Of a stretch of DNA of 64,000 bases, positions 11,087 to 14,749 are shown piece by piece. Below the pieces are notes generated by a model. It was not told the origin of the DNA. It did no database searches and saw only the letters and a list, made by a program, of their open reading frames with translations. Both the position numbers and the translations under genes were made by a program. The first letter of the stretch is position 1; every line of letters begins with the position of its first letter. The DNA is from Phoronis australis (Eukaryota > Animalia > Phoronida): NCBI GenBank assembly GCA_002633005.1, contig NMRA01000124.1, forward strand, positions 1 to 64,000. Direction: 5' to 3'.

Positions 11087-11212
11087 ATGTCATCGACAAG
11101 CCAAAAACATAGGAATTTTGTCTCAGAGCCTATGGGAGATAAACCGGTGACAGACCTTGCAGGGATTGGTGAAACTCTTGGTGGCCGCCTGGCTGATCAG
11201 GGTTTTGATAAG
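11087..11212 (+). CDS. BANF1: Barrier-to-autointegration factor, first coding exon (aa 1-42)
   Basis: [42 protein letters not shown], closely matching human BAF N-terminus (AGIG helix-hairpin-helix); acceptor tttcag at 11059, phase-0 donor AAG|gt at 11213. Confidence 0.96.
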
Positions 11213-11456
11213 GTACCTTCCCCTTTTAAGCTATGTTCCATTTTGTCCTCAAATTGTTCTTTTGGTGGCAGCAGCATTTTGTTTCCTCAAGTTTCTGTGC
11301 AGAAGTGAACATTACCTAGAAAAATTCTGCTTTATCAGGATGACTTGAGTACTTGTAGCTACATGGAGACAGGCAACATTTGGAAATGCTTGTATTTTGT
11401 CTGTTTGTGAAAGAACTAAAGAAATGCTGTTGACAGTAACGATAACTGGTGAAAAT

Positions 11457-12107
11457 AATATCAGTGACTCAGTAGTATTATTCAGAACTGAACACCTCTG
11501 TGTGGGGAGAAAATGTATCATTAATATCAGTGACTCAGTAGTATTATTCAGAACTGAACACCTCTGTGTGGGGAGAAAATGTATCATTAATATCAGTGAC
11601 TCAGTAGTATTATTCAGAACTGAACACCTCTGTGTGGGGAGAAAATGTATCATTAATATCAGTGACTCAGTAGTATTATTCAGAACTGAACACCTCTGTG
11701 TGGGGAGAAAATGTATCATTAATATCAGTGACTCAGTAGTATTATTCAGAACTGAACACCTCTGTGTGGGGAGAAAATGTATCATTAATATCAGTGACTC
11801 AGTAGTATTATTCAGAACTGAACACCTCTGTGTGGGGAGAAAATGTATCATTAATATCAGTGACTCAGTAGTATTATTCAGAACTGAACACCTCTGTGTG
11901 GGGAGAAAATGTATCATTAATATCAGTGACTCAGTAGTATTATTCAGAACTGAACACCTCTGTGTGGGGAGAAAATGTATCATTAATATCAGTGACTCAG
12001 TAGTATTATTCAGAACTGAACACCTCTGTGTGGGGAGAAAATGTATCATTAATATCAGTGACTCAGTAGTATTATTCAGAACTGAACACCTCTGTGTGGG
12101 GAGAAAA
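11457..12107. repeat. 66-bp minisatellite, ~9.9 identical copies, in BANF1 intron
   Basis: Unit aatatcagtgactcagtagtattattcagaactgaacacctctgtgtggggagaaaatgtatcatt starting at 11457, 11523, ... 12051; ends at N (12108). Confidence 0.97.
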
Positions 12108-12338
12108 NCAAGGAGCAGCAGCTGTCAAGTGCACCACAGCTGCTCTTGAAAACAAGAATTTTGTTTGAAAATTGGGTAAACATGCCTCAGGTAGTGTGAA
12201 AGGAGACGGTAAAATCACCATTGCGGCCACTTCAAAGTGCCTGGTACGTTCACAGCATGTTACACAATCTCTTCACATGGTCTTGTGAAATCATTTCTCA
12301 ATTTTGTCCATTCATCTGTTATTTCTGATGCATTTCAG

Positions 12339-12485
12339 GCATATGTTGTGTTGGGGCAATTTTTGCTGCTCAAGAAAGACGAAGAGCTGTTCGGGGAGTG
12401 GTTAAAGGATTCATGCAATGCCAATAAAAAACAAGCTGGAGACTGCTTCAATTGCTTGCAAGATTGGTGTGACTCGTTTTTGTAG
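12339..12485 (+). CDS. BANF1: Barrier-to-autointegration factor, canonical terminal exon A (aa 43-90)
   Basis: catttcag|[54 protein letters not shown]; joined to exon 11087-11212 gives a 90-aa BAF. Confidence 0.96.
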
Positions 12486-12867
12486 AGCAATCTCGACTCA
12501 CCAATTTACAACCAATTTTTTTTTCATTATCAAAACATTGAACTTTGTGTATATGCCTGACCTTATGTACCAGGAATTCTCAGATGTTAGAGAAAGAGGC
12601 CTCATGCTGTATAGCACACTCAGAGAACTTGCAAAGCATTGATCTGATCATGACTTGTCAATTTCAACAATCAGTACCCCGTGTATGTTGCCAGTTCTAT
12701 TATTTATTACTAGTAGCTTTTAGTAATGTGTTGCTCTAGTGCTAACTGCAGAAGGTGGACGTTTTACGTATTAATTTGAGACACGGGATGAGCATTCATC
12801 TATGTATTGTCTTGAAATTTCACTTGATATCTTCTCCGATGTCATATGAGTAGCAGCCCAACTCCAA

Positions 12868-12979
12868 GGACGTCCTTGTAATACCTGTATTTAAATCTTG
12901 TTATAAATGCTTGTATTATACCTGGACGTCCTTGTAATACCTGTATTTAAATCTTGTTATAAATGCTTGTAGTATACCT
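12868..12979. repeat. 56-bp tandem duplication in putative BANF1 3' UTR
   Basis: ggacgtccttgtaatacctgtatttaaatcttgttataaatgcttgtattatacct present twice (12868, 12924), one mismatch. Confidence 0.9.
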
Positions 12980-14602
12980 GTTGCTGATAATGATCTCTTG
13001 TTAATAGTTCTTTTGGAAGACCAAAAATCTGGATTATCAAACTGAGGTTTGGATTATAGATGGTTAGACAGGCCAAAATATTGCCTGTGGAGTCTACCCC
13101 CCCCCCCATGTAGTGGGACACTAAGGAGCCTTAACCTGTCTTATTTCAAAAGTTGATTTACTTCTGCTGACTAACGCAAGGTTGAAACAGAAGGAAAATT
13201 ATCCATTGACCTTTTTTGCAGGTACATCACATTGTGGTATGCTGGTATTCCAAAGCAAAATAAAATTATCATGTAGATGTCACTATGCCAAGAATGTATC
13301 CCGTTGTAGTTTCTTGCACTCCTGCACCTATCAGTGCCTATGCAGGGTCAAACCAGCATGTTTTTGCTTTGTGCAAAACAAACAATTTGAATATTAAAGC
13401 TTATCTGGTAAAATTTTAACTTTGTTTTACAAAAAACAAATAGTTGCAAGCAATTTGGTGCTTCTTGTTTCTGAGATTACAACCTGATTTGGCATGAGGG
13501 GCATTTTGCCCCTTTGCTTGTGCTCAAACCCTGCTATGACCCCCAAACTTCACTTGTTCAGCTGACAACTTGACTCCTTTCTTCTCATGGAACTGTAAAG
13601 TTGTCTCGAAGGGATTCGCACGATTCGTCAATTTTTGTGTTGTGTCCAGTGTAAGATTTGGTGGTCAAGGGCTGTGCTCCCCTCCACTCGTATTCCAGTG
13701 ATGCTGTAACTTAAGGGGTTTAAGCTTCATTGACCCGATTCATGCGTTTTGTTTTCTCTGCTGTTATTGTTGTTATCCTTGTTTTGGATTGTTTCAAGAA
13801 ATATCGAGACTGATATTGTACAAAGCGACTTAACCCCCATTCCATCCTGGAGCGAACTTTTGCTTTAGACTACTGTTTGACATACAATTGGTCTCAACTT
13901 GTTACTTGCTAAGAAGATAAAGCGATTTCTGAGTCTCAGTCATCAAAAAAATTGGTAGTTCGTTATTCCTCAAGACCATGCTCCTGGTATGAAGTGACAT
14001 GTCTACTTGATGAAACTCTGAATCTGAAATCTCCAATTCAACTTTAATAAGTTGAGACCAATTTCATGATGGTAAGTGGTCTAAACCAAAGGTAGGTTTC
14101 ACAGATAGAGGGCAGGTTTGTAGTCACTTTTTAAGATTATGTATAATTAACCTGAGCTCGAGACCACCATTTGAACTTCGATTTAAAATTTCTCCCAAAC
14201 CATTTGGTATGATCACCGAGTCCAGTACAAGTGAAGCTTGATGGTGTTGGGGCTCTGGTCAGTTTACATGTATGTGATTCCACAGTAAAGGTCTTTTGCA
14301 TTGCTGGTAGAGTAGACAACAGGACTTGGAATTTTCTTCTTTTAAGAGGATTTCCTCTTTTTTGGTTTTGATTCCCACTTATTTGATTTCCAGTTCCCGC
14401 TTTTTTCCGTCTCTTTTTTTGTCATTAATTCGACTTGATTTGTACAAAAACATTTATTTCAGTTACATTTTACAGCACCAAAAATATTTCCATCATACAA
14501 GCCTATTTATGTGTGGAATGATACATCACCTGGAAAATTCTCTTTTGTCAATGGTCATTCCAAGCATTTAAACAGATCTGAGCTGCTGTGTTTGCTTTTT
14601 AG

Positions 14603-14749
14603 GCTAGTGTCGTGCTAGGTCAATTTCTGTTATTGAAGAAAAACGAGGCCCTGTTCACCGAATGGCTGGCTGATGTAACAGGAGGAAATCAACTCCATAC
14701 CAATACGTGCTTTGGTTGTCTCGAAGAATGGTGCGAAGAGTTCTTATGA
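14603..14749 (+). CDS. BANF1: Paralogous alternative terminal exon B of BANF1 (divergent BAF C-terminal half)
   Basis: tttgctttttag|[51 protein letters not shown]; 147 nt, same length and phase as exon A, 28/48 identical residues, no stops or frameshifts. Confidence 0.85.

Follow-up and report, generated by a model that had tools for sequence, protein, structure and literature searches.

A single BANF1-type gene with a duplicated last exon was identified in the window (the whole stretch of 64,000 nucleotides of Phoronis australis DNA that was analysed). Each of its two homologous terminal exons, A and B, is spliced to the same upstream shared exon. Both junctions, two alternative upstream exons, sample-dependent use of these exons and purifying selection on exon B were observed, and the architecture together with the differential exon use can be regarded as virtually certain. 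The explanation which we favour, and hold with about even confidence, is that exon B and the second upstream exon are dominant in some samples and that the B product is predicted to be a regulated BAF variant, which would lack the lysine of the phospho-lock and so answer differently to phosphorylation, but likely dimerises and binds LEM proteins and DNA.

BAF is a small conserved protein which clamps DNA to the nuclear envelope, and the form in which it is known to have diversified is BAF-L, encoded by a paralogue of its own. The present gene by itself gives rise to a second form of BAF, in which more than half of the protein is replaced and which is the majority transcript in some samples.

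Organisation of the locus and its transcripts

Transcripts were followed in a set of contigs (X1) and in three raw RNA runs from a single study (X2, X3 and X4, which carry no tissue labels; 18-19% of each run was read). The features of the locus are given in coordinates of the window.

1922..1952, plus strand: 3' end of the distal upstream exon P1, non-coding; donor GTAAGA
10297..10431, plus strand: predicted coding part of the proximal upstream exon P2, 45 codons from ATG 10297; donor GTGTGA
11060..11212, plus strand: shared exon, nine open codons followed by ATG 11087 and BAF residues 1-42
11456..12108, no strand: perfect tandem array in the intron (66 bp x 9.9 copies), which closes at an assembly gap of one N
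12339..12485, plus strand: terminal exon A, encoding residues 42-89 of canonical BAF (human numbering)
12486..14602, plus strand: putative long 3' UTR of isoform A; in isoform B, spliced out as the distal portion of the intron
14603..14749, plus strand: terminal exon B, coding, a diverged copy of A; its junction predominates in X2 and X3
14750..14950 (approximate), plus strand: short 3' UTR of B, with the 3' end that both isoforms probably have in common

Exons A and B each consist of 48 codons and a stop, follow a pyrimidine-rich YAG acceptor (11/16 and 12/16 pyrimidines, respectively) and lie 1,126 and 3,390 nt from the phase-0 GT donor which terminates the shared exon after 11212. An earlier note on this DNA had described both exons with their own acceptors and stops, and its coordinates and translations were reproduced. 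It had also named 11087-11212 as the first coding exon; this stretch translates as it stated and ends at a phase-0 donor, but the exon begins at 11060 and is preceded by others.

The shared exon, which encodes the N-terminal phospho-sites and the main DNA-binding surface, has a bivalve BAF as its best named match (98% identity), a weak indication of lineage. Scores of the shared exon, A and B against Pfam SAM_BAF (PF02961) were 66, 76.3 and 59.1 bits (cut-off 25), and the model is filled whole by both isoforms (shared exon 1-41, A or B 42-88), which is their likeness to metazoan BAF/BANF1 (PF02961; PDB 1CI4); the difference is that here a single gene offers a choice of two C-terminal halves and, by prediction, an N-terminal extension which may be present or absent. 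Compared with protein P0126, the C-terminal half of which equals the 1CI4 chain, A is identical at 36/48 and B at 30/48 residues. Judged by profile and contact residues, both products are members of the BAF family.

RNA was mapped to 12110-16000 and 10900-11440, on either side of the array, so that junctions appear as loose ends. In X2 and X3 the depth over most of the shared exon was 104-150, and 3 or less in the flanking introns. The earlier note had proposed one gene with alternative homologous last exons, and reads indeed join the shared exon to A and to B. The junction 11212-14603 was found in X2, where 84 reads (agreement 0.99, among the loose ends listed) run from the B acceptor into the shared exon, their letters being identical to 11181-11210 at 30/30 positions. 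Seen from the donor side, the consensus was B in X2 (102 of 252 mapped reads, agreement 0.87) and X3 (63 of 188, agreement 0.85), and A in X4 (47 of 78, agreement 0.99) and, from a single contig, in X1. Based on two rough estimates, the share of B was ~65-78% in X2, 59-62% in X3 and 3-15% in X4. A further GT..AG join, 12682-14603, was present in three reads of X2 and two of X3, which places A and B on one pre-mRNA.

The genotype of X4 differs: variants of the shared exon present in X2 and X3 were seen there at 0/37, 0/50 and 1/56. Since X4 lacks variants common to the other two runs, tissue, stage, sex and genotype are confounded in this comparison. The variant share in X2 and X3 was 54-68%, which misfits an origin of B from a single allele (expected ~0.9 or 0.25 by hand arithmetic).

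Sense depth, which was 0-2 in the intron leading to A, rose to 33-47 on A itself, was 8-53 in every non-repeat bin of the A-to-B interval (bins 14320-14579, a multi-copy repeat, being disregarded), and dropped to 2-6 past 14970; an X1 contig ends at 14948. Depth on A was similar in the three raw runs (33, 43, 47), while on B it was 121/106 in X2, 77/76 in X3 and, in X4, 33 and 26, equal to the level of the interval. The coverage passes an AATAAA at 13259 and continues through B; near 14950 the poly(A) signals are AATAAT variants only. From this continuous coverage, the 3' UTR of A is probably ~2.4 kb long in many A transcripts, contains B and ends near 14950, and the isoform switch therefore looks like mainly a choice between acceptors and not simple alternative polyadenylation. 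Of the alternative splicing or polyadenylation suggested previously, the splicing choice stands and simple alternative polyadenylation looks less likely. Earlier ends of A transcripts, for example after AATAAA 13259, are compatible with the data. The interval 12486..14602 also contains the minor GT donor at 12682 and the multi-copy repeat near 14320-14579.

Upstream, the shared exon has two partners, P1 (end 1952) and P2 (end 10431), the second of which, associated with B, is absent from the earlier note. P1 was present in X1-X4, where loose ends preceding the shared exon belong to it in the X1 contig and in 26 reads of X2, 13+3 of X3 and 26 of X4; its read letters were placed at 1922 with 30/30 matches, the intron to the shared exon is 9,107 nt, and the last 73 bases of the exon (1880-1952) contain no ATG. 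P2 was identified from loose ends in X2 (96 reads) and X3 (77), with none listed for X4; by eye, 29/30 read letters match 10400-10429, a stretch unique within the window, and the intron is 628 nt. P2 accounted for 96/122 upstream junction reads in X2, 77/93 in X3 and, among rows with at least 3 reads, 0/26 in X4. Whether as first exon with its own promoter or as an internal exon, the role of P2 is a candidate assignment.

Two in-frame ATGs occur in P2, one at 10423, inside the read consensus, and one at 10297, downstream of an in-frame stop. Including the nine open codons before 11087, P2 is predicted to add a lysine-rich N-terminus of 12 (net charge +6) or 54 (net +4) residues. Read support covers 10400-10431 only, a stretch which does not reach ATG 10297; since no good acceptor is present between 10297 and 10400, an extension of the greater length is plausible. 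Pfam and Atlas searches with the P2 frame gave no match and are uninformative either way.

As the shares of P2 and of B add up to more than one, at least about one third of the X2 and X3 transcripts carry both (minimum overlap 0.33 in a cautious estimate with P1 up-weighted), a coupling derived by arithmetic on short-read counts. It is not strict, since in X3 the share of A (~40%) exceeds that of P1 (17-26%).

Divergence of the terminal exons

Exons A and B are identical at 28/48 residues and 82/144 bases, with 27, 35 and 20 of 48 identities at codon positions 1, 2 and 3 (position 2 versus position 3, Fisher p = 0.004). The value of dN was ~0.42-0.44 and dS was saturated, beyond the range of YN00 and LWL85. 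In neutral simulations at equal nucleotide identity, 0/20,000 retained an open frame with at least 28 identical residues. Exon B is under purifying selection. The flanks of A and B were no more alike than expected by chance (scores 19 and 23; random 95th percentile 24), and the duplication is consequently old. The earlier note's count of 28/48 with diverged synonymous sites and no frame break was thus recovered on recomputation, and its view of an old duplicate under purifying selection is borne out by the simulations and the flanks. In the 64 kb window tblastn detected no further copy of the shared exon (next match E = 2); the earlier note had seen none between A and B. In a relative-rate test B evolved faster than A at p < 0.05 for 4/7 outgroups, with its core retained. 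A quick tree (118 rows x 48 columns) left 77/115 inner branches open, and the age and order of the duplication unplaced.

Orthologues of B were sought in several ways. A word-index search gave no candidate at near lengths and four candidates at longer lengths, none of which scored, a weak negative in that 90-residue BAFs sharing words with B exist. HMMER against 50% representatives revealed no B orthologue among the matches examined from the best 150 of 163 (the top 44, those scoring B at least as high as A, and a few multi-stretch matches); the best full-length identity to B among the 150 of 163 matches listed was ~60-62%, in generic BAFs throughout. The top two-stretch match, P0121, was considered as an A-plus-B protein and rejected, as it consists of two whole BAF units. 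A metagenome scan yielded 12 loci (11 BAF, 1 spurious), and in no case was the terminal exon duplicated; the five with both first and terminal exon have a single terminal exon each. The reach of the finding is limited until the arrangement is known from other species.

Residues were numbered according to alignments with 1CI4. The main DNA contacts of BAF are K6, G25, G27, V29 and L30, aided by S4, Q5, A71 and R75, in the portion of the source available (PMC6459885). In the shared exon the positions of S4, Q5, K6, G25, G27, V29 and L30 are occupied by S, Q, K, G, G, T and L, so that the main contacts of this partial list are common to both isoforms. Positions 71 and 75 are unlike human in both (K and G in A; Q and N in B). 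The earlier note had rightly stated that K72 and Q73 are replaced in B (K72L, Q73H) and had called B BAF-L-like, BAF-L being a poor DNA binder; this view of B is weakly supported, the main contacts lying in the shared exon and K72 and Q73 being absent from the main contacts in the same portion of PMC6459885. The LEM-binding residues 48, 51, 52, 58, 61 and 62, in the list available to us Q48, V51, L52, L58, E61 and W62, are all identical in A and B, with L at 51, in line with the earlier claim that B keeps the LEM-binding helix. Of the lamin contacts in the available text, positions 83, 86 and 87 are E, E and E in B, and F88 is retained. The terminal half of B is indeed more acidic than that of A (net charge -5 versus -3).

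For comparison, 270 proteins were fetched, of which 127 (116 distinct) had a full ungapped C-terminal half above the score cut-off and 143 were dropped; the set is biased towards matches to the shared exon and to B. Among the 116 distinct halves, K64A and A69G of B occur in none, E57A, K72L, A74T and D76T in one each and Q73H in four, while A69 is conserved in 109, Q73 in 101, K or R at 72 in 99, K64 in 95 and D76 in 95. The changes of B at conserved positions cluster in residues 64-76. Uncommon residues are found in A as well, at variable positions (G60, S66, Q82). K or R at 72 is missing from 17/127 BAF halves, and 9/116 sequences fall below B on profile score. Y43S, listed previously among the changes in B, was rejected as a marker of divergence; it occurs in 11/11 BAF loci fetched and in 6/116 sequences of the comparison set.

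In human BAF a salt bridge joins phospho-Thr3 to K72, and K72E abolishes the conformational shift triggered by phosphorylation, as described in the sections available of PMC8053085, a section heading of which states that DNA binding is strongly reduced by phosphorylation. From its residues, B would keep DNA and LEM binding with an altered phospho-response, and the tail may add basic charge; B would probably still dimerise and may cross-bridge dsDNA. Even with the K72 lock lost, phosphorylation could still act directly through its charge.

Protein P0269 is nameless in its source, and we take it to be BAF-L-like. B and P0269 have lost K64, K72 and Q73 in parallel and have N55 and A57 in common, but L58 and E61 are kept in B and both changed in P0269. 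The affinity of B to BAF-L claimed earlier does not appear in the identity to P0269, which is 22/48 for A and B alike. According to the parts available of PMC13443024 and PMC8877947, BAF-L is testis-enriched, forms heterodimers with BAF and has a lower affinity for DNA. B resembles vertebrate BAF-L/BANF2 as a divergent partner with the BAF fold and restricted expression; BAF-L, however, is a separate gene, whereas B shares an exon with A inside the BAF gene and, unlike BAF-L, has the entire N-terminal DNA-binding half of BAF and the LEM-contact residues. By its residues B is not BAF-L, and because of the parallel loss of K64, K72 and Q73 it may in part work like it.

Proposed function and rival explanations

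In the explanation favoured here, a housekeeping transcript would run from P1 through the shared exon to A, with a ~2.4 kb UTR passing through B. A second programme, restricted by cell type or stage, would use P2 and favour the distal acceptor of B, giving a short UTR; judged from the read counts, both P2 and B would be present in roughly a third or more of the X2 and X3 transcripts. The P2 extension (12 or 54 residues) would end lysine-rich, adjoining the VRK phosphorylation sites, and the loss of K72 and K64 with the other helix changes would alter phospho-dependent closing and the basic surface, DNA binding not being abolished. The locus would offer a natural experiment in which the N-terminal DNA-binding half is constant and the phosphorylation-reading helix is changed, with A/A, A/B and B/B dimers as a test of residues 64-76 and of the N-terminal tail. 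A germline or early-embryo role of B is a guess by analogy. A bolder and tentative version, which we consider possible though not probable, is that of a lineage-evolved, cell-type-specific BAF, in which a second promoter adds the lysine tail and steers splicing to a B without the K72 lock, so that the product would stay on chromatin or the envelope when BAF is released and would be the main BAF of germ cells or embryos.

B could also be a real, regulated isoform roughly equivalent to A biochemically, the switch acting at the RNA level (through a second promoter together with a ~0.2 instead of a ~2.4 kb UTR) to raise BAF output in certain cells, and the changes in B being tolerated drift. This is rather unlikely. 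The similar depth of A in the three raw runs (33, 43, 47), with B added on top, the roughly tenfold difference in UTR length, the unchanged LEM and core residues and the variation of other BAFs at 72/73 (17/127 without K or R at 72) would all agree with it; the changes in B, however, strike conserved positions clustered in residues 64-76, and the rates of A and B are asymmetric. We judge it unlikely that B is a BAF-L-like dampener which binds DNA poorly and dilutes bridging through A/B heterodimers. The charge of its terminal half (-5 against -3), the residues it has lost or shares in common with the presumably BAF-L-like P0269 and the heterodimerisation, weaker DNA binding and testis enrichment given for BAF-L in the parts available of PMC13443024 and PMC8877947 point that way. 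Against this stand the main DNA contacts of the partial list, which lie in the shared exon, the absence of R75 from A as well, the net positive charge which P2 would contribute (+6 or +4) and the retention in B of L58 and E61, changed in P0269; moreover, B is apparently the majority form where expressed, not a minor modulator.

A decaying pseudo-exon in the UTR of A, spliced as noise or in a single genotype, is largely refuted and very improbable. B does lie inside the apparent UTR of A, its use is nearly zero in X4, which has a different genotype, none was seen in X1, and the orthologue searches were negative; but it is the majority junction in 2/3 raw runs, its frame is intact with saturated synonymous sites and 0/20,000 neutral simulations matching it, and allele shares of 54-68% in X2 and X3 misfit a single-allele B. 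That the locus comprises an ordinary tandem pair of genes, the first exon of the second one being concealed by the gap at 12108 (as the earlier note had allowed) or by misassembly, is scarcely credible. The gap is of undefined size beside a perfect array, and the evidence for the direct junctions consists of loose ends to either side of that array. The single N at 12108, however, is the end of the 66-bp array and lies upstream of both A and B, so that a first exon hidden there would not serve B as its own without splicing across A; the A-to-B interval has neither an N nor a copy of the first exon, is continuous in RNA and is spliced (12682-14603), and reads entering B match the shared exon at 30/30 letters.

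Precedents for the exon arrangement

The class of splicing is already known, and the BAF case was not found in the literature searched, where no BAF isoform from a duplicated exon came up (subscription journals mostly uncovered, supplements excluded). "BANF" and "BAF" have 0 occurrences in the main text of PMC8373072. In the available part of that paper, 77/236 human substitutions by tandem-duplicated exons are C-terminal. Such swaps resemble the present one in having homologous, adjacent terminal exons which are old and selected; the same part of PMC8373072 ascribes them to alternative poly(A) use, whereas here the UTR of A appears to cross B, and the swap exchanges more than half of a 90-residue protein.

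Promoter-coupled choice of 3' isoforms, by "dominant promoters", is described in the available part of PMC10228280. The likeness to that description is that from run to run the upstream exon and the terminal exon in use change together; the differences are that here the coupling comes from short-read counts, the promoter status of P2 is putative and both coupled ends would alter the protein. The locus is a compact candidate for coupling between a 5' exon and a terminal exon with the protein altered at both ends.

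Splicing and transcription around the BAF gene

A minor splice, represented by 5 RNA reads, was observed between a donor at 12682, which lies 197 nt downstream of the stop codon of the canonical terminal exon A, and the acceptor of its divergent duplicate, exon B, at 14603. Transcripts spliced in this manner carry the coding sequence of A and would be candidate targets of nonsense-mediated decay. Antisense reads (depth at most 46) were mapped to 14970-15229 and 15750-16000, with their onset just past the apparent 3' end of the gene, and are attributable either to repeats or to a convergent transcript.

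An open minus-strand exon with a C2H2 zinc-finger motif at its end was located at the window edge (1-627). It is arranged head to head with the distal upstream non-coding exon P1, and a bidirectional promoter is possibly common to both. Positions 11456-12108 are occupied by a perfect 66-bp tandem array of 9.9 identical copies, ending in a one-letter gap. The number of copies is possibly an artefact of assembly.

BAF proteins and loci elsewhere

Seven database proteins (P0121, P0145, P0203, P0226, P0233, P0251 and P0252) contain at least two BAF-like units per chain, and represent either true tandem BAFs or merged gene calls. Loci L001-L011, BAF loci of another animal, each possess one terminal exon, starting with Ser at position 43.

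Other coding frames

Features of the window outside the BAF gene

38965-41655, plus strand, one 896-codon frame containing the domains Somatomedin B and 7tm_2
44942-45721, minus strand, long frame
50338-51513, minus strand, long frame
55309-56898, minus strand, long frame

The first is an adhesion/secretin-type GPCR, mostly within one exon. None of the three minus-strand frames was matched in the Pfam search. A short motif, recognized by eye, is common to 50338-51513 and 55309-56898, which suggests a tandem orphan family.
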